From Eledone cirrhosa (lineage: Eukaryota), in NCBI GenBank assembly GCA_964016885.1, contig OZ024746.1, positions 63,922,001 to 63,986,000 on the forward strand: a stretch of DNA of 64,000 nucleotides, given 5' to 3'. The translations under genes were made by a program, and so were the position numbers. Within the stretch, counting starts at the first letter, position 1, and every line of letters starts with the position of its first letter. Below are positions 13,051-34,079 of this stretch, one piece after another. The notes beneath the pieces were generated by a model. It saw nothing but the letters and a program-made list of their open reading frames with translations. It did no database searches and had not been told where the DNA came from.

Positions 13051-14756
13051 TCATCATCATCATCATCATCATCAACGTTTAACGTCCGTGTTCCACGCTT
13101 GCATGGGTTTGGACGGGGGTAGTCCCACTTGAGGCAAGAGTGATTGTCTTGCTCGCATAGGACTGTCTGGCAGGTTTTCTACAGTTGGATGCCCTTCCTA
13201 ACACCAACCACATTTACAGTGTGGGTCTGGGAGGTTTTTACCGTGTTGCCTACACGGCCACATTACAGCGTGGACTGTGTGTTTTTTTGTCGTGACACCT
13301 ACACGATCTCATTTGTTTCGGCCTCGATGGCGCGGCACCAACATAACTTTACATAGAACGGGGTGGTGTGGATCGGGTGGGGGTGGTGGTGGTGGTGGGA
13401 CGGGGTGTATTTTGTTAGAGATGCCTACTGGCTGGAGTAGGTTTTACTATATATTTAGGTAAGGCGGGTCTTCTCTGTTACTGAGTACCGCCAAAGGTCT
13501 CGGTCCAGTGACATTGTCTTGGAGAGGTGTAAGTGTGTGATGTCGGAGTTTATCAGCTCGTCCCAGGTTTTTCTAGGTCTGCCTATTCCGTGACTACCGT
13601 CTATCTTTATTGCCCTGCACTTTGTTATACAGCTATCGACTTTCATGCGCATCACGTGTCCATACCAACGTAGCCTTCTCTCGAGTAAACATCTGATCCC
13701 TCTTATCTCTAATTTTTTCCTTAGTTCGTTTATGCTTTGCCGTTCACGTATATTACTGTTACACATCCAGCGGAGCATGCAAGCTTCGTTCCTCTCTAGT
13801 CTGCGTATATCCTCTGCACACAATGCCCAGGTCTCACTGCCATGCAGCATTGCTGTTCGTATGCAGGCATCGTACAACCTGCCTTTCATTTTTAGTGAGA
13901 ACCCTTTAGCAGCTAATAGTGGTATAAGCTCTCTGAACTTTTTCCAACCAGTTCTGACTCTAGCTACAGTACTTTCAGAGCACCCTCCCCCACTGCTGAT
14001 TTTATCGCCCAGGTAACGGAAGCTGTCCACTATTTCTATAGAACCCTCTGCGCAATTGAAAGAGCTAGTAGTTTGTGGGCACTTGCTGCTACTTATTGCA
14101 CCAGAGCACCGGCCACATGTAAAATCTATGTTCTTAGTTAGCTTACCTGTGATCCCACTACATCTTTTATGCACCCATACTTTGCATTTAGGACATAAAA
14201 TGGAGTTTCTACCTACGCCTTTCCTACACACCGAGCACGACCATTTCCCAGAAGGGACCGCCGCCTTGTTTTCTTTCCTACAAACTAGTACTTTGGTCTT
14301 AGCCAGGTTAATTTTAAGGCCTTTTGACTCTAGGCCGTGCTTCCATGTTTGCAATTTCTTCTCTAGCTCGGCCATTGATTCCGCTATGAGTGTCAGGTCG
14401 TCTGCGTATAGGAGTTCCCATGGGCAGCCTGTCTTGAACTCCTCTGTTATAGCCTGAAGGGCAATAATAAATAGTAGTGGGCTGAGAACAGAGCCCTGAT
14501 GGACGCCAACTTTTACGCTAAACTCTTCACTATATTCGTTGTTAATTCTAACCTTGCTGACTGTTTCTTTATACATGGCTTGTATAGCCCTCACAAGCCA
14601 TTCGTCAACGCCTAGTTTTCTAAGAGCCCACCAGATAATGGAGCGGGGGACTCTGTCGAAGGCTTTCTCCAAGTCGACAAAAGCTAAGTAGAGGGGTTTA
14701 CCTTTAGCTAGGTACTTCTCCTGTAGTTGTCGTACTATGAAAAGAGCGTCTGTGGT
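13051..14756 (-). mobile_element. RTE-clade LINE copy A (5'-truncated; RT with PHD-like zinc-finger insert, 3'UTR, (GAT)n tail)
   Basis: ORF 13455-14672 contains EKAFDRVP, GVHQGSVLSP and LLYADDL, plus CxxC..CxxC..HxxC..CxxC. It is nearly identical to 32405-34078. Confidence 0.95.
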
Positions 14757-14864
14757 ATATATATATATATATATATATAGTTATCTAATAAACAACATAA
14801 GATAATTATTTCATTTACCAGTGGTTTCTTGAAGGCAGATATTTATTTCCTACGGAAATACTTC

Positions 14865-16772: not shown

Positions 16773-16999
16773 GATATATATTTCGTTTCTGAATTTGTTT
16801 AGCAAGATTCTTTATCTGAAATCGTGTGTTGAAACCGATATTGTTATACTTTGGGAGGGTCATGTTGCCAATAAGAAACACACGTACCATATATATATAC
16901 ATATATATATATATTGTTATATTTGGGGAGGGTCATATTTGCGTAATATTGCCAGAATTAATAACAGAACACACTCACTGTTTGGTTGGTTTTCGCTTC

Positions 17000-19497
17000 T
17001 CGCTGTCTTTTATATATATATATCTGCGATCTAACTTACTCGGTCCTCAATGTTGCCATTGACTGACCGGCGGTCAAAAATAATACAGATACAATATAGA
17101 CAAACACATATATATATAGTTTACATAAATCTTTCGTTGCACATCTGCAACATCGTCAGTGGTGTTATATTCATTGTTCCTCCTGTTGTGTTGTATGTCT
17201 ACGCCATTTTTTTTGTTCAGTCTGTCTATATATTTATTTATTTATTTGCTTGTTTGTTTATCTTATTTTATTTTGTCTTCTTTGCGCATGCGTTTGCGTG
17301 TGTGTATAGTGTTATGTGTGATGTGTGATGTGTGACTAGTGTGTATAGTGTTGTCTGCTGGGTGACTAGTGTGTGTTTATGTGCTTGTGTATGTATTTAT
17401 TTATCTTATTTTATTTAATTTAATTTACTTATTTATTTATACTTCTCTTAGGTCAGTGTTGTTTGTTTGGGTGTTGTTGTTGTTCCACTCATTCTTTCTG
17501 TTTAGCTTTGGTCTTCTAATTTCTATTTCACTGGCCTCTCTGATTTGCCTATCTGCTGGGTCATTCCTATGTTTAGATATTATTCTAATTTCTATGTTGT
17601 CTATGTTACCGTCATGGTGTTGTCTAGCATGTTCGTATAGTACTGACCCGTTTTTTCGTCCTTTTAGTTCCCCCCAGTGTTGGTCTATCCTTTCACCTAT
17701 GCTACGAGCTGTCTCACCTATGTATGTTGTTGTCGTGTTTCTGCAAGTACCCTCTGTACATCTTATGCTATAGACTACGTCTTCTAGTTTTACAGTTTAT
17801 CCGGGGGTTCACCTTACATATGATACATTTCCTATTGGTACAGTGGGTTTCTTAAAAGGGTAGGTTTTGCTGATCAGGGATTTTATGGTGGTTCCTGGCT
17901 TTTCTACCACCTTTATTTTTAAGTGGGTCTTTCTCAGGGCCTTTCTACACTGGTTAGCTAATTTCCCTCCAGGGGGTGGCGTCCACAAACATGACACTCT
18001 GATATCTCTGGTTGTCGTACCATGATGTGGCCTTCCCTATCTTATGTCTAGCCGCTATCTAAGTTATTCCATGATTTGCTCCTGTATAGTGGGCAAATTC
18101 CTTTCATGTCCAGTTCTATGAGGGTCTTATACTTTTCCATGGCTCCTTCGTATACTCTGACTCTGTCTCTTTGGTTGTAGCCAGAGAACTGCATGCGGTT
18201 GATGAAGTGTTTGATGTGTCCTTCCATTTCTGTTGGGTCGCACATGCTGGACACATTCTTCATCACTCGTACCAAATCTGCGATCAGAATATTAAACTTA
18301 GCACTACTGGACATTGCTGAGTTTTTGAGTATCAGGTATTTGGAGGCCATGGGTTTAGCATAGTGTGAGTGGAGAATTTGGGCTCTCTCGTCTATAGTGT
18401 TAATCCAGAGTTCTGTGTCTAATACAGGTAGTCTATTGTTAGGGTGTTTGGAAGGGAAGTCTATAGTTACAGTTATACTCTGGTGTATGGAATTAGCTAT
18501 CTGCTGGATGCTTTCCATCGTGCTACGTTCTAAATCAAACTTGTTAGTGCTCTCTAGTGGGGGTGTTCTTATAACTATATTGATATCGTCTACATAACGA
18601 GAGTACATGATGAGGTCTATGGAGCTTTCATTAAGGAGATCTTTAAGTCTCCTTTCCCACCATACCATGAAAAGGTTGGCAAACATCGCCAGCTATGCTG
18701 ACGCCGATGGCTGCTCCCTCATTTTGGGTGTAGATTTTCTCATTGAACTTAAATATGTGGCCCTTTAGGGTAGTTTTGATACTAGCCCCTATTGCATGTG
18801 CGACCATTTTTCTTACCTGATCAGTGTTTTGGGGGGTCCGTATAGCTTTGGTCCACCCAATCCACCTTCCTATGGGAGTCTTTTTAGCCATTGAGGTTAT
18901 GGTGGGGGGTCTACCTCTTATAGGTCTACTAGGGCAGAAACATCTAAGGTCATGGCTGTCTAGGTAGTCAGTGTCGTAGGTAAGTCTAAGTAGGAGGCCC
19001 AGTTCGTCTGTGTCGACGTCGCAGAACTCCACCTCACTCTCAATGATCATCTCTCCACACATCTTTTCACAGCAAAATCAATGTTAATGGATGGGTACAG
19101 TGACACCACATCCATGCTGCCTATTATGCAGTTGGATAGGCTCCTGTTTTGTTGCACTCACTGATTCTGCTGAGGAGGTCCTCTGTACTTTCACATACAT
19201 CTGGGGACATCTTGATTATGGGGCGTATAACCATGAGAGGAAGTAGGAGATCCTGTAGTTGCTAGCTATATTAGCTCCGCATACAGGTCTTGTTGGTGGT
19301 CCTATTGTCGGGTCGTCGACTGTCTTGTGGTCTTTGCGGAGCCCATACAAGGGTGGTATGCCATTGTTAGACGCCTGGAAGTTGTTGGCAGTGCGTCTGC
19401 TTGGCTTTAGGGATGTCAGTCCACATCATCATGTGAGCGGTTGAGGATTTTTTCTCTCCCATCGTGTGTTAGTTGTGCAACTTCGCTCGTGTTGGTG
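17000..19497 (-). mobile_element. Penelope-like retroelement, Neptune type (RT + Cys linker + C-terminal GIY-YIG endonuclease), 5'-truncated and frameshifted
   Basis: RT motifs LYGLRKDHK...GPPTRPVCG, IIGSMDVVSLYPSI, EGAAIGVSIAGDVANLFM, SRYVDDIN and LPVLDTELW. Linker CTNRKCIIC...C. Endonuclease VVYSIRC...YIGETARSIGERIDQH...RQIREA...LNRKNEW at ~17480-17785. Confidence 0.92.
17101..17170 (-). ncRNA. Hammerhead-like motif in the 3' terminal region of the Penelope-like element (stem I disrupted)
   Basis: Minus strand reads ACACCA-CTGACGA-T-GTTGCA(gatg)TGCAAC-GAAAG, with a perfect 6-bp stem II. The 3' strand of stem I appears interrupted by (TA)n. Confidence 0.55.
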
Positions 19498-21481
<1,984 letters not shown>

Positions 21482-23784
21482 TATTAGAAATCTTCAGGAT
21501 TACATTATCCAGTGCTTTTATCGAGAATGACACAGCTAGAGACTTATAGAATACTTAGCTGTGTACAGGAACTGGTTTGAAAGAGCTGTTGCCGGTCCGG
21601 CAGAAATGTCTATCTTCACATATATATCGCTATTTCAGAGCATTTAATCCAATTTCCTAATTTCTGCCGGACCGGCAACCGCTCTTTCAAACCAGTTCCT
21701 GTACACAGCTAAGTATTCTATAAGTCTCTAGCTGTGTCATTCTCGATAAAGCACTGGATATGTAATCCTGAAGATTTCTAATAAGAATGAAACGCGTAGG
21801 TTACTTCCCTTGCTTTTGTCGAGAATCTAATTGTAATACGTGACGTATTCTATTCTATAGCGATTAGGTCTTCAAAATGTTTATTATAAACATACAGAAT
21901 ATTTTCGAATATTCTATGTCTATCTTCACATATATATCGCTATTTCAGAGCATTTAATCCCAATTTCTAATTTCTGCCGGACCGGCAACCGCTCTTTCAA
22001 ACCAGTTCCTGTACACAGCTAAGTATTCTATAAGTCTCTAGCTATGTCATTCTCGATAAAAGCACTGGATATGTAATCCTGAAGATTTCTAATAAGAATG
22101 AAACGCGTAGGTTACTTCCCTTGCTTTTGTCGAGAATCTAATTGTAATACGTGACGTATTCTATTCTATAGCGATTAGGTCTTCAAAATGTTTATTATAA
22201 ACATACAGAATATTTTCGAATATTCTATGTCTATCTTCACATATATATCGCTATTTCAGAGCATTTAATCCAATTTCTAATTTCTGCCGGACCGGCAACC
22301 GCTCTTTCAAACCAGTTCCTGTACACAGCTAAGTATTCTATAAGTCTCTAGCTGTGTCATTCTCGATAAAAGCACTGGATATGTAATCCTGAAGATTTCT
22401 AATAAGAATGAAACGCGTAGGTTACTTCCCTTGCTTTTGTCGAGAATCTAATTGTAATACGTGACGTATTCTATTCTATAGCGATTAGGTCTTCAAAATG
22501 TTTATTATAAACATACAGAATATTTTCGAATATTCTATGTCTATCTTCACATATATATCGCTATTTCAGAGCATTTAATCCAATTTCTAATTTCTGCCGG
22601 ACCGGCAACCGCTCTTTCAAACCAGTTCCTGTACACAGCTAAGTATTCTATAAGTCTCTAGCTGTTGTCATTCTCGATAAAAGCACTGGATATGTAATCC
22701 TGAAGATTTCTAATAAGAATGAAACGCGTAGGTTACTTCCCTTGCTTTTGTCGGAGAATCTAATTGTAATACGTGACGTATTCTATTCTATAGCGATTAG
22801 GTCTTCAAAATGTTTATTATAAACATACAGAATATTTCGAATATTCATATGTCTATCTTCACATATATATCGCTATTTCAGAGCATTTAATCAATTTCTA
22901 ATTTCTGCCGGACCGGCAACCGCTCTTTCAAACCAGTTCCTGTACACAGCTAAGTATTCTATAAGTCTCTAGCTGTGTCATTCTCGATAAAAGCACTGGA
23001 TATGTAATCCTGAAGATTTCTAATAAGAATGAAACGCGTAGGTTACTTCCCTTGCTTTTGTCGAGAATCTAATTGTAATACGTGACGTATTCTATTCTAT
23101 AGCGATTAGGTCTTCAAAATGTTTATTATAAACATACAGAATATTTTCGAATATTCTATGTCTATCTTCACATATATATCGCTATTTCAGAGCATTTAAT
23201 CCAATTCTAATTTCTGCCGGACCGGCAACCGCTCTTTCAAACCAGTTCCTGTACACAGCTAAGTATTCTATAAGTCTCTAGCTGTGTCATTCTCGATAAA
23301 AGCACTGGATATGTAATCCTGAAGATTTCTAATAAGAATGAAACGCGTAGGTTACTTCCCTTGCTTTTGTCGAGAATCTAATTGTAATACGTGACGTATT
23401 CTATTCTATAGCGATTAGGTCTTCAAAATGTTTATTATAAACATACAGAATATTTTCGAATATTCTATGTCTATCTTCACATATATATCGCTATTTCAAA
23501 GCATTTAATCCAATTTCTAATTTCTGCCGGACCGGCAACCGCTCTTTCAAACCAGTTCCTGTACACAGCTAAGTATTCTATAAGTCTCTAGCTGTGTCAT
23601 TCTCGATAAAAGCACTGGATATGTAATCCTGAAGATTTCTAATAAGAATGAAACGCGTAGGTTACTTCCCTTGCTTTTGTCGAGAATCTAATTGTAATAC
23701 GTGACGTATTCTATTCTATAGCGATTAGGTCTTCAAATGTTTATTATAAACATACAGAATATTTTCGAATATTCTATGTCTATC
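21482..23784 (+). mobile_element. Retrozyme-like tandem array: 7 x ~310-bp units plus a 5' inverted partial unit
   Basis: Near-identical units run from 21607 to 23784. 21482-21607 is the reverse complement of 21660-21783. Each unit has a hammerhead motif, there is no ORF, and (TA)n flanks both sides. Confidence 0.88.
21762..21804 (+). ncRNA. Minimal type I hammerhead ribozyme, copy 1 of 7 (others start at 22073, 22383, 22694, 23004, 23313, 23623)
   Basis: GTAATC-CTGAAGA-T-TTCT(aata)AGAA-T-GAAA-CGCG-TA-GGTTAC. It has a 6-bp stem I, CUGANGA and GAAA boxes, palindromic stem III ACGCGT and a GUA cleavage triplet. Confidence 0.85.
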
Positions 23785-25317
<1,533 letters not shown>

Positions 25318-25321
<4 letters not shown>

Positions 25322-26552: not shown

Positions 26553-28533
26553 ACATGGCTTGTATAGCCCTCACAAGCCATTCGTCAACGCCTAGTTTCT
26601 AAGAGCCACCAGATAATGGAGCGGGGGACTCTGTCGAAGGCTTTCTCCAAGTCGACAAAAGCTAAGTAGAGGGGTTTACCTTTAGCTAGGTACTTCTCTT
26701 GTAGTTGTCGTACTATGAAAAGAGCGTCTGTGGTACTTTTGCCTGACACAAACCCGAACTGCATTTCATCTAGGTCAATTCTCTCTCTGATTAGTTGCGC
26801 TATTACTCTTTCCGTGACCTTCATGACCTGGTCGATTAATTTAATGCCTCTATAGTTACTCCTATCTAGGGGGTCTCCTTTACCCTTATAACAGTTAACG
26901 ATGATGCTGCTATGCCAGTCCTTCGGAACAACCCCGTTCTGTACGACTTGGTTAACTATGCGGGTGACCATGGTGTGTCCCACCGTGCCAGATGCCTCAG
27001 CATCTCAGCAACTATTTCCGAAGGCCCAGCCGCCTTACCAGTCTTCATATCCTTGATTGCCTTACTTATTATACTCCCCTCGACTAACACTGCTGGTCCC
27101 TCTATTGGGTCGATATGGGGGAGACTGCCTTTCTCCCAATATTCTCCTCATTTAGAAGCCTTTCATAGTGACACTTCCAAGCTACCTTCTTATCAGCGTC
27201 GGTGATGGCAAGTGTGCCATCGTCGTTTAGTACACACTTCTCCCCGACAATATCACGGTTTTCCTTGACGCATTGCCTAGCAATCCTGAACACCTCACGT
27301 TTTTGGTCATCGCGTTGTAGAACATGCTTGAACTTTCTTTCCTCAGCTTCCCTTCTTGCTAAGTACACTTGTCTCCTAGCTTCCCTCCTGGCCACTTGAT
27401 AGTCCTCTCTACTTCCCCCATCCCGCCATACTTTCCAAGCCTGCTTTTTGGCCTTAATTGACCCCTCCACCTTACTGTTCCACCACCATGTTACTCTCCT
27501 CCTGCCTACAGGCCTGCTCCAGCCACAGACCTCGTCTGTCGCCAACAGCAGGTTTGCTTTCAGAAATTCCCACTCTCCCTCTATATTGTCCGACTCTAAA
27601 TGTTCTTCCTTACTGTCGAAAGCATCAAGTAATATGCTTTGAAATTTATTCCTGGCTGTGGGGTCCTTTAGCTTCCATATTTTCCTCCTGAGGATAGTCC
27701 TCTTCTGTTGTCGAGTACGTCTCGTCCTGACTATGAGGTCGCTAATTATCAGTCTATGTTGGGAGGTGCATTCTTCATGGGGGAGGGATTTAGTGTTAAC
27801 AACAGACACTCTGTCACGTCTTCTGGTAAGGATATAATCTACCTGGCTTGTGTGTTCCCCGGATCTATAGGTGATCAGGTGATTGTCACGTTTTTTGAAG
27901 TTAGTGTTACAGATAGTTAGGTTATTTGCATCACAGAATTCCAGGATTCTGGAGCCTTCCTCATTTCTAGTACCAAACCCATAGCCTCCATGGATTTCGT
28001 CGTAGCCGTCACAATGTTGCCCAACGTGACCATTTAGGTCGCCTGCAATAATTATATAGTCACTGTCAGATATTTGGGAGGTAGTGAGCATCAGTGTCTC
28101 ATAGAATCTGTCTTTTATAGTGCCGGGCAGTCCGGATTGGGGTGCGTACGCAGATATTACTGTCACCGTAGTTCTATTGAGGACAAGTCGTATTTTAATT
28201 ATTCTGTCGTTCACTCTATTTACGTCTATTATCTTATCTGCCCACTTTTCTGCTACCATGATTCCTACTCCACCCAGCCCATCGTCGTTTCCCACCCAGA
28301 AAGCTTATAACAACGTTTTTTACCCTCAATGAACCTAGCAGACCCACCCCTCCACCTGGTCTCTTGAATACAACAAACATCGACCTCCTTACGTTCAAGC
28401 ATTTCTACAACCTCGTTAGCGCGACCCTTTAGGGTGCCTACATTTATGGTACCAACTCTGAAGTTTTGGATTGCGTTTGGGGGTTGGGGGCGGTGAGGGG
28501 CGGGGGGCGATGGGGTATGTTAGCCGTCATGAG
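26553..28533 (-). mobile_element. RTE-clade LINE copy B (AP-endonuclease and N-terminal RT), frameshifted, cut by the gap
   Basis: ORFs 27102-28295 ([28 protein letters not shown]) and 26585-26983 (NYRGIKL, QFGF, DLEKAFD). Same family as copies A and C. Confidence 0.95.
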
Positions 28534-30654
<2,121 letters not shown>

Positions 30655-31395
30655 GTCCTGACTATGAGGTCGCTAATTATCAGTCTATGTTGGGAGGTGC
30701 ATTCTTCATGGGGGAGGGATTTAGTGTTTACAACAGACACTCTGTCACGTCTTCTGGTAAGGATATAATCTACCTGGCTTGTGTGTTCCCCGGATCTATA
30801 GGTAATCAGGTGATTGTCACGTTTTTTGAAGTTAGTGTTACAGATAGTTAGGTTATTTGCATCACAGTATTCCAGAATTCTGGAGCCTTCCTCATTTCTA
30901 GTACCAAACCCATAGCCTCCATGGATTTCGTCATAGCCGTCACAATGTTGTCCAACGTGACCATTTAGGTCGCCTGCAATAATTATATAGTCACTGTCAG
31001 ATATTTGGGAGGTAGTTAGCAACAGTGTCTCATAGAATCTGTCTTTTATAGTGCCGGGCAGTCCGGATTGGGGTGCGTACGCAGATATTACTGTCACCGT
31101 AGTTCTATTGAGGACAAGTCTTATTTTAATTATTCTGTCGTTCACTCTATTTACGTCTATTATCTTATCTGCCCACTTTTCTGCTACCATGATTCCTACT
31201 CCACCCAGCCCATCGTCGTTTCCCACCCAGAAAAGCTTATAACATCGTTTTTTACCCTCAATGAATCTAGCAGACCCACCCCTCCACCTGGTCTCTTGAA
31301 TACAACAAACATCGACCTCCTTACGTTCAAGCATTTCTACAACCTCGTTAGCGCGACCCTTTAGGGTGCCTACATTTATGGTACCAACTCTGAAG
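30655..31395 (-). mobile_element. RTE copy C, inverted 5' segment (AP-endonuclease domain)
   Basis: [11 protein letters not shown]...SAYAPQ...GDLNGHVG...QVDYIL...[12 protein letters not shown]. It is the direct upstream continuation of the + strand segment that follows. Confidence 0.95.
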
Positions 31396-34079
31396 CGACC
31401 TCATAGTCAGGACGAGACGCACCCGACAGCAGAAGAGGACTATCCTCAGGAGGAAAATATGGAAACTAAAAGACCCCACAGCCAGAAATAAATTTCAAAG
31501 CATATTACTTGATGCTTTCGACAGTAAGGAAGAGCATCTAGAATCGGACAATATAGAGGGACAGTGGAAATTTCTGAAAGCTAACCTGCTGTTGGCGACA
31601 GACGAAGTCTGTGGCTGGAGCAGGCCTGTAGGCAGGAGGAGAGTAACATGGTGGTGGAACAGTAAGGTGGAGGGGTCAATTAAGGCCAAAAAGCAGGCTT
31701 GGAAAGTATGGCGGGATGGGGGAAGTAGAGTAGACTATCAAGTGGCCAGGAGGGAAGCTAGGAGAGAAGTGTACTTAGCAAGAAGGGAAGCTGAGGAAAG
31801 AAAGTTCAAGCATGTTCTACAACGCGATGACCAAAAACGTGAGGTGTTCAGGATTGCCAGGCAATGCGTCAAGGAAAACCGTGATATTGTCGGGGAGAAG
31901 TGTGTACTTAACGATGATGGCATACTTGCCATCACCGACACTGATAAGAAGGTAGCTTGGAAGTGTCACTATGAAAGGCTACTAAATGAGGAGAATAAAT
32001 GGGAGAAAGACAGTCTCCCCCATATCGACCCGATAGAGGGACCAGCAGTGTTAGTCGAGGGGAGTATAATAAGTAAGGCAATCAAGGATATGAAGACTGG
32101 TAAGGCGGCTGGGCCTTCGGAAATAGTTGCTGAGATGCTGAAGGCATCTGGCACGGTGGGACACACCATGGTCACCCGCATAGTTAACCAAGTCGTACAG
32201 AATGGGGTTGTTCCGAAGGACTGGCATAGCAGCATCATCGTTAACTGTTATAAGGGTAAAGGAGACGCCCTAGATAGGAGTAACTATAGAGGCATTAAAT
32301 TAATCGACCAGGTCATGAAGGTCACGGAAAAAGTAATAGCGCAACTAATCAGAGAGAGAATTGATCTAGATGAAATGCAGTTCGGGTTTGTGTCAGGCAA
32401 AAGCACCACAGACGCTCTTTTCATAGTACGACAACTACAGGAGAAGTACCTAGCTAAAGGTAAACCCCTCTACTTAGCTTTTGTCGACCTGGAGAAAGCC
32501 TTCGACAGAGTCCCCCGCTCCATTATCTGGTGGGCTCTTAGAAAACTAGGCGTTGACGAATGGCTTGTGAGGGCTATACAAGCCATGTATAAAGAAACAG
32601 TCAGCAAGGTTAGAATTAACAACGAATATAGTGAAGAGTTTAGCGTAAAAGTTGGCGTCCATCAGGGCTCTGTTCTCAGCCCCCTACTATTTATTATTGC
32701 CCTTCAGGCTATAACAGAGGAGTTCAAGACAGGCTGCCCATGGGAACTCCTATACGCAGACGACCTGACACTCATAGCGGAATCAATGGCCGAGCTAGAG
32801 AAGAAATTCCAAACATGGAAGCACGGCCTAGAGTCAAAAGGACTTAAAATTAACCTGGCTAAGACCAAAGTTCTAGTTTGTAGGAAAGAAAACAAGGCGG
32901 CGGTCCCTTCTGGGAAATGGTCGTGCTCGGTATGTAGGAAAGGCGTAGGTAGAAACTCCATCTTATGTCCTAAATGCAAAGTATGGGTGCATAAAAGATG
33001 TAGTGGGATCACAGGTAAGCTAACTAAGAACATAGACTTTACATGTGGCCGGTGTTCTGGTGCAATAAGTAGCAGCAAGTGCCCACAAAATACTAGCTCT
33101 TTCAATTGCGCAGAGGGTTTTATAGAAATAGTGGACAGCTTCCGTTACCTGGGCGATAAAATCAGCAGTGGGGGAGGGTGCTCTGAAAGTACTGTAGCTA
33201 GAGTCAGAACTGGTTGGAAAAAGTTCAGAGAGCTTATACCACTATTAGCTGCTAAAGGGTTCTCCCTAAAAATGAAAGGCAGGTTGTACGATGCCTGCAT
33301 ACGAACAGCAATGTTGCATGGTAGTGAGACCTGGGCATTGTGTGCAGAGGATATACGCAGACTAGAGAGGAACGAAGCTTGCATGCTCCGCTGGATGTGT
33401 AACAGTAATATACGTGAACGGCAAAGCATAAACGAACTAAGGAAAATATTAGAGATAAGAGGGATCAGATGTTGTTTACTCGAGAGAAGGCTGCGTTGGT
33501 ATGGACACGTGATGCGCATGAAAGTCGATAGCTGTATTACAAAGTGCAGGGCAATAAAGATAGACGGTAGCCACGGAATAGGCAGACCTAGAAAAACATG
33601 GGACGAGCTGATAAACTCCGACCTCACACACTTACACCTCTCCAAGACAATGTCACTGGACCGTGACCTTTGGCGGTACTCAGTAACAGAGAAGACCCGC
33701 CTTGCCAGTAGGCATCTCTAACAAAATACACCCCTCCCGCCGCCACCCCCACCCCATCCACACCACCCCGTTCTATGTAAAGTTATGTTGGTGCCGCGCC
33801 ATCCAGGCCGAAACAAATGAGATCGTGTAGGTGTCACGACAAAAAAACACACAGTCCACGCTGTAATGTGGCCGTGTAGGCAACACGGTAAAAACCTCCC
33901 AGACCCACACTGTAAATGTGGTTGGTGTTAGGAAGGGCATCCAACTGTAGAAAACCTGCCAGACAGTCCTATGCGAGCAAGACAAATCACTCTTGCCTCA
34001 AGTGGGACTACCCCCGTCCAAACCCATGCAAGCGTGGAACACGGACGTTAAACGTTGATGATGATGATGATGATGATGA
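31396..34079 (+). mobile_element. RTE copy C, non-inverted 3' segment (linker, RT with PHD-like finger, 3'UTR, (GAT)n tail)
   Basis: The 709-aa ORF 31592-33721 is uninterrupted and has the RT motifs including YADD. Confidence 0.97.

Follow-up and report, generated by a model that had tools for sequence, protein, structure and literature searches.

How did seven near-identical copies of a noncoding unit of about 310 bp, each with a hammerhead ribozyme motif, come to be arranged in tandem in the genome of Eledone cirrhosa? The array lies in the window, i.e., the entire 64,000-nucleotide stretch analyzed here (assembly GCA_964016885.1, contig OZ024746.1, positions 63,922,001 to 63,986,000 of the forward strand), and the original prediction, made from the letters of the window, was that it belongs to a young, non-autonomous retrozyme family mobilized by the reverse transcriptase (RT) of a Penelope-like element (PLE). 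Based on the window, 87 parsed loci and genome-wide searches, we are highly confident that the element is a retrozyme moved by a PLE. We also consider it likely that the array is one non-LTR retrozyme insertion, two-armed and located in (TA)n, that was generated by a PLE RT/endonuclease copying a predicted 310-nt RNA circle.

Based on BLAST, the array consists of seven head-to-tail units of 309-312 bp starting at 21606, 21916, 22227, 22537, 22849, 23158, and 23467, followed by a stub from 23776. TRF returned a period of 310, 7.1 copies, and 98% matches. The GC content of the array is 0.35, and the array has no ORF of at least 120 aa; an ORF scan of the window detected no RT plus GIY-YIG endonuclease ORF in the unit or the array. 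The extent of the array had been correctly recognized, but neither the partial unit in inverted orientation at 21482-21607 nor the surrounding (TA)n had been noticed. The entire insertion is embedded in (TA)n, with long (TA)n runs on both sides, and is organized as follows:

19498-21481, no strand: (TA)n microsatellite, left of the target (TRF period 2, sequence)
21482-21607, reverse strand: inverted, 5'-truncated second arm, unit positions 54-178 (BLAST, 98%)
21606-23784, forward strand: main arm, with seven retrozyme units of 310 bp and a stub that ends at site A (TRF, BLAST)
23475-23514, forward strand: site A (unit positions about 8-22), site B (about 41-55), and the "tail" between them, given for unit 7 (outer arm ends at 87 loci)
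23737-23784, forward strand: pair of predicted hairpins plus the beginning of a third, immediately 5' of site A, in the last copy (fold)
23786-25318, no strand: (TA)n microsatellite, right of the target (TRF period 2)

The inverted arm and the main arm are joined with a 2-nt overlap. The short arm stops at position 178, inside stem-loop II of the hammerhead, and not at site B; because it ends off site B, we suggest that this arm was probably trimmed later or aberrantly primed. The predicted monomers range from 309 to 311 nt, and this spread is probably assembly noise, given that 9 indel events occur in the 7 units of the window versus 41 in the 389 units from other loci. The predicted hairpins 5' of site A occur in every unit, and the first of them has a compensatory change in a related family in an alignment inspected by eye; from the predicted fold, these hairpins are a candidate signal for recognition and initiation by the RT. 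Elsewhere in the window, at 13045-14780, 26585-28304, 30654-34079, 48449-51800, and 56567-59800, lie several LINE copies with long open frames, which visual inspection of their motifs classifies as RTE-like and CR1-like and most of which have microsatellite flanks.

All seven units contain the hammerhead motif GTAATC-CTGAAGA-TTTCTAATAAGAAT-GAAA-CGCGTA^GGTTAC, and all seven cut positions given in the original prediction were reproduced:

21762-21804, forward strand: type I hammerhead of unit 1, predicted cut after 21798 (BLAST, Rfam, alignment)
22073-22115, forward strand: type I hammerhead of unit 2, predicted cut after 22109
22383-22425, forward strand: type I hammerhead of unit 3, predicted cut after 22419
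22694-22736, forward strand: type I hammerhead of unit 4, predicted cut after 22730
23004-23046, forward strand: type I hammerhead of unit 5, predicted cut after 23040
23313-23355, forward strand: type I hammerhead of unit 6, predicted cut after 23349
23623-23665, forward strand: type I hammerhead of unit 7, predicted cut after 23659

In this motif, helix I has 6/6 pairs, helix II has four positions consisting of three pairs on a U.U, helix III has 2 bp with a palindromic loop (ACGCGU), and the core is CUGAAGA...GAAA...UA. Judged by its sequence and the definitions in PMC4209133, the motif is of the canonical metazoan type I form. Thus, the motif was rightly called type I with a palindromic helix III but not rightly called minimal: the minimal hammerhead of PLEs has a helix II of 7-8 bp, a helix I of 4-5 bp, and an unpaired base 5' of helix II (PMC4209133), whereas in the window motif the helix lengths differ and no unpaired base precedes helix II. 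The U.U pair, which had been flagged as atypical, is present; however, because axolotl HHR_Amex2 also has U.U at the base of helix II (PMC7229834) and some haplotypes of the family have A-U in its place, it is no objection to a hammerhead. In the hammerhead model search that had been proposed together with the original prediction, the best Rfam match of the window unit was indeed a hammerhead family, Hammerhead_HH9 (hammerhead clan CL00010), but with 16 bits (E 0.35) for the window unit and 23 bits (E 0.0018) for a younger haplotype, both scores are below the gathering score of 52. The closed monomer is predicted to fold at -69 kcal/mol (z -4.6 versus 100 shuffles); in this structure, stems I and II are formed, and a long stem extends helix I. 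The z score for the fold of the linear monomer is -3.4.

Counting exact pattern matches in the 3.0-Gb genome, we found 1,085 matches to the CUGAAGA-type hammerhead pattern, 14,231 to the younger CUGAUGA-type pattern, and 21,444 to an end-region pattern that includes relatives, while the reversed control returned 0 in each case. The two hammerhead types together amount to more than 15,000 units. The 1,085 matches versus none in the control argue that the hammerhead motif is not due to chance. Genome BLAST of the unit, also proposed at the outset, recovered a family dispersed over many loci without LTR structure, in which arrays are 95-100% identical to the window unit and (TA)n flanks most outer ends. 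Related families have units of about 316 bp that are about 67-70% alike over the whole unit and keep the hammerhead at the same place, with a longer helix III and with U3-A8 instead of C3-G8, a covariation that is already known (PMC4209133).

Several other repeats came to light in these searches. Retrozyme-like relatives of ~316 bp, whose hammerhead has U3-A8 and a helix III of 3-4 bp, are present at L095:700-1200, at L104:2236-2560, and at L180, where they form a near-identical tandem array. A further hammerhead repeat, whose helix II is closed by U.U, is found in tandem at ~1-kb spacing in L035:5739-9711 and at ~420-bp spacing in L107 and L219. Small two-armed elements at L037:1980-2170, L108:7330-7530, and L133 have a hammerhead helix II that is nearly that of the family, while the remaining sequence is different. 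In addition, three sequencing runs of unclear kind, labelled as other organisms, each contain one 340-nt contig matching window positions 22227-22846. These contigs correspond to the unit plus 30 nt, either as a closed cycle or as a collapsed tandem, and cannot separate a circle from a tandem; their differences match haplotypes of the youngest subfamily, and RNA, contamination, or a related species are all possible sources. We therefore give these runs no weight in the conclusions.

The anatomy of the insertions was analyzed at 87 loci, which are a nonrandom sample comprising 35 best BLAST hits, 43 loci listed first on the largest contig, eight loci selected because they carry one particular variant, and the window; an arm was counted if it was at least 28 nt long. 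Two diverging arms were present at 65 loci and one arm at 22, with arm lengths from 0.1 to 13 units. The outer ends of the arms cluster at sites A and B and then run into (TA)n. Site B is located about 30 nt beyond site A, and the tail is about 26-35 nt long. In all 57 two-arm loci with both ends at the fixed sites, one end is an A end and the other a B end. Eight of the 65 two-arm loci have an end at neither site; among them is the window, which has an inverted arm and an A end and lacks a B end. At L041, the second arm is 13 nt, i.e., under the length cut-off, and the ends are B/B.

The inner ends of the arms are spread evenly (7/152 at positions 190-200, p = 0.30). They are uncorrelated between the two arms of a locus (Rayleigh p = 0.93), and they do not track the outer end of the other arm (13/114 at positions 9-58, p = 0.94); the arms are mostly joined with an overlap of 1-5 nt. 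Because the inner ends are uncorrelated and independent of the opposite outer end, we rejected L1-type twin priming as well as the breakage and inversion of a single concatemer in its L1-like form. Linear cleaved monomers were rejected as the main template because 5' ends do not accumulate at the cut.

In EN+ PLEs, an adjacent inverted copy, a 30-40-nt tail that is often at one end only, and a bias toward (TA)n have been described (Craig et al. 2021, PMC8557442), and a PLE protein extends both strands in vitro, with two adjacent internal start sites defining the tail (Frangieh et al. 2024, PMC11167929). The two-arm, A/B-ended, (TA)n-targeted insertion is this PLE tail footprint. The dispersed arrays with 95-100% identity, the (TA)n target, the inverted arm, and the one-sided tail all support that, as originally predicted, the array represents a retrozyme that is young and non-autonomous and is mobilized by a Penelope-like RT. 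As separate observations, the flanks on either side of the insertions at L060 and L042 are short mutual inverted repeats, for which an inverted target duplication is possible, and hybrid arms with PLE pieces (L046, L047, L048, L056, L059, and L096) may have arisen by insertion into, or next to, older copies. In known metazoan retrozymes, a target-site duplication, when there is one, exceeds 4 bp; within (TA)n, such a duplication would be masked.

By protein search, we identified four PLE-like families in the genome (the L129, L196, L208, and L214 types). Long open frames (784, 1,217, and 785 aa) recur in many identical copies in three of them, while the fourth is older. Pfam detected RT and GIY-YIG in two of the four full ORFs tested, and the other two are called PLE-like based on visual inspection of their motifs; two fragments of the PLE in the window had no Pfam match. 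In one intact PLE family, the one-A-one-B type of rule holds in 9/9 two-arm loci with both ends readable, and in a second family, the same two-end rule holds in 2/2 readable two-arm loci. BLAST and an end-region profile gave matches only in already known members or in relatives. The PLE copy in the window (16800-19497, reverse strand) is a frameshifted copy of the very active 1,217-aa-ORF family, which is intact at L196-L201; its terminal repeat contains a minimal hammerhead near 17160-17120, and its two fixed ends are separated by about 45 nt. This broken copy is about 2 kb from the array, and we suggest that the proximity probably reflects the common use of (TA)n targets and not kinship. A second very active PLE, at L129:2064-5713, has overlapping frames of 455 aa and then 784 aa, the latter with RT and GIY-YIG, in many identical copies, and the arrangement of these frames suggests a programmed frameshift or a splice; a scan of its terminal repeat detected no canonical hammerhead. 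A third very active PLE-like family, at L208:2803-5157, has a 785-aa ORF without a Pfam match and often occurs as inverted pairs.

Two explanations that dispense with a retrozyme have to be weighed against these data. If the unit were the pLTR of an autonomous PLE, the arrays would be truncated stumps that were multiplied locally. Xenopus retrozymes are related to pLTRs (bioRxiv 10.64898/2026.07.22.740005), and PLE fragments adjoin a few single arms (L046, L047, L056, and L059), as this explanation would have it; however, the adjoining pieces come from different families, are broken or noncoding, and are mostly in the opposite orientation. Moreover, the unit closes on itself at 310 bp in both arms, and ORF scans over part of the loci detected no recurring ORF upstream of the unit. 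The original prediction of a standalone retrozyme would not have stood had the unit been the terminal repeat of an already catalogued autonomous element, and none of the four PLE families compared, among possibly further ones in the genome, shares terminal sequence with the unit. Altogether, we regard a pLTR origin as very improbable. An ordinary satellite spread by DNA duplication, in which the hammerhead-like motif would be due to chance or a relic, has in its favor the Rfam scores under the gathering threshold and the DNA-level expansion seen in long arrays. Against it, the short arrays of the family are dispersed and located in (TA)n, their 3' ends fall at two fixed sites while their 5' ends are random, and their variation preserves structure; because the arm-end pattern already contradicts a satellite, we give this explanation almost no weight.

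For a retrozyme moved by a PLE, one question is which RNA served as the template. Among 273 units spanning the cut, no indel is listed at positions 188-197; the arms thus cross the cut site seamlessly, which argues for a template sealed at this point, be it a circle or an uncut multimer. Both arms of an insertion usually have one haplotype: position 213 is uniform in 60/61 loci and position 42 in 61/61. Several of the youngest arrays are 8-16 units long and carry at most one private change. At L115, all 18 units in both arms have G95C. Among 31 genome-wide hits, this variant is array-wide nowhere beyond L115, and the 14 matches outside this locus comprise ten single units and one alternating array. 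Because G95C is fixed in both arms of L115 and elsewhere present in single or alternate units, we suggest that the array passed through a one-unit bottleneck. Genome-wide privacy was established only for G95C, and the haplotype of L171 was rejected as private because it is that of a 773-unit subfamily.

Array-wide variants in the hammerhead were never harmful, i.e., hitting the core or breaking a pair (0/8), versus 21/30 of the non-fixed variants (Fisher p = 0.0005); this test omitted G195C, which carries a 1-nt insertion and is harmful in a gapped alignment, and the count is 1/9 if it is included. When restricted to the catalytic core, the test was not significant (0/9 versus 5/23, p = 0.29). 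Because the variants that have spread spare the ribozyme, cleavage seems to matter for spreading. Based on the sealed cut site, the one-haplotype arrays with the G95C bottleneck, and the ribozyme-sparing variants, we favor, with moderate confidence, a monomer circle as the main template.

Alternatively, the same element and the same PLE enzyme could have relied mainly on an uncut, linear multi-unit transcript, with the haplotypes deriving from homogeneous sources and DNA expansion, and with circles being rare or a by-product. The seamless read-through of the cut site is equally predicted by such a template. In the anole PLE, the hammerhead is dispensable in vitro and unprocessed RNA is the main template (PMC11167929), and 8/9 Xenopus retrozyme dimers were uncleaved in vitro (bioRxiv 10.64898/2026.07.22.740005). 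In addition, three mixed arrays are a misfit to one monomer circle: L034 has G213 only in the two innermost units, L039 has G184A in 4/8 units in both arms, and L051 has A271C in 2/3 units. Similarly, the periodic variants in L033, L056, L188, and L191 point to DNA-level expansion or multimeric templates, and array length alone proves nothing. However, a linear multimer leaves unexplained why the propagated variants spare the ribozyme and why diverged relatives keep the hammerhead with U3-A8, and it would need a one-unit bottleneck to generate the G95C pattern. We therefore consider it unlikely, while taking it seriously, that linear multimers were the main template. As side observations, the variants at L188:3578-6641 alternate every second unit over eight units, as in a dimer circle or a DNA duplication, and at L039, a change of the catalytic-core G12 to A is common to four units across both arms.

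With a monomer circle as the template, a new array may arise as follows. Existing arrays would be transcribed, and neighboring hammerheads would cut, probably as dimers via the ACGCGU palindrome, and release 310-nt monomers, which a host ligase would close into circles. The proposal of the cutting and closure steps draws on the sequence, the selection on the motif, and known retrozymes. A PLE protein, probably a dimer, would then nick both (TA)n strands, and one cDNA would start at each of the two sites on a single RNA; we observed the one-A-one-B pattern itself, and the dimer is our proposal. Each cDNA would extend over 0.1 to 13 units around the template, and both cDNAs would be joined, mostly at 1-5 nt of microhomology; here, the arm lengths and the junctions are observed, and the rolling circle is our interpretation. 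Subsequently, some arrays may grow or shrink as DNA, as suggested by the periodic variants. Taken to its full extent, this scenario would mean that the insertions record rolling-circle reverse transcription by one PLE dimer on one ribozyme-made 310-nt circle, in which the subunits always use opposite start sites and both cDNAs are copied from the same molecule. The haplotypes of the circles would be under ribozyme selection, as in a viroid replicating via the genome, and kinship with the pLTR of a helper would not be needed. We regard this full reading as evenly poised between right and wrong.

The conversion of a retrozyme circle into tandem cDNA by a PLE RT, and thereby into a new array, is a stated hypothesis in PMC7229834 and bioRxiv 10.64898/2026.07.22.740005. 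This family, being very young and very abundant, provides countable footprints of the circle-to-array step, and it also bears on how PLEs make tandem and inverted insertions. It is, moreover, a small test system, with a 310-nt template, two mapped start sites, and candidate enzymes from at least three PLE families in which many ORFs are open. The type of element is already known, while for the family itself, as for any cephalopod retrozyme, we found no description in the literature, in which the supplements of the retrozyme papers may list relatives or insertion structures; in the main text of the Octopus vulgaris repeat paper (PMC13282606), the terms hammerhead, ribozyme, and retrozyme have 0 occurrences.

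Compared with known systems, the ribozyme resembles the minimal hammerheads of PLEs (Cervera and de la Pena 2014, PMC4209133) in its type I topology and its weak palindromic helix III, which suggests cleavage as a dimer (PMC4209133); unlike them, it has canonical helix lengths, while the neighboring PLE in the window has the minimal form. The insertions resemble those of EN+ PLEs in having 5'-truncated tandem copies, an inverted copy, a tail at one end, a preference for (TA)n, and two RT start sites near a stem-loop. In contrast to EN+ PLEs, the unit encodes neither RT nor endonuclease, the arms are concatemers of a 310-nt unit, and the tail is at one end in 57/57 loci. The metazoan non-LTR retrozymes described by Cervera and de la Pena 2020 (PMC7229834) and by Li, Clavereau and Pollet 2026 (bioRxiv 10.64898/2026.07.22.740005) have been shown to be expressed and to form circles, whereas the element described here is known from sequence. 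In the accessible text of these two papers, the link to PLEs consists of co-occurrence and similarity to pLTRs, whereas here it consists of an explicit insertion footprint, with no pLTR homology found; the two-armed insertions, fixed ends, and haplotype-uniform arrays found here have no counterpart in that text. Like those retrozymes, the family consists of noncoding, GC-poor tandem units within the range of 150-450 bp, each with a type I hammerhead with a short palindromic helix III, in a genome that also contains PLEs. Thus, at the sequence level, the element has every feature of non-LTR retrozymes that could be assessed.
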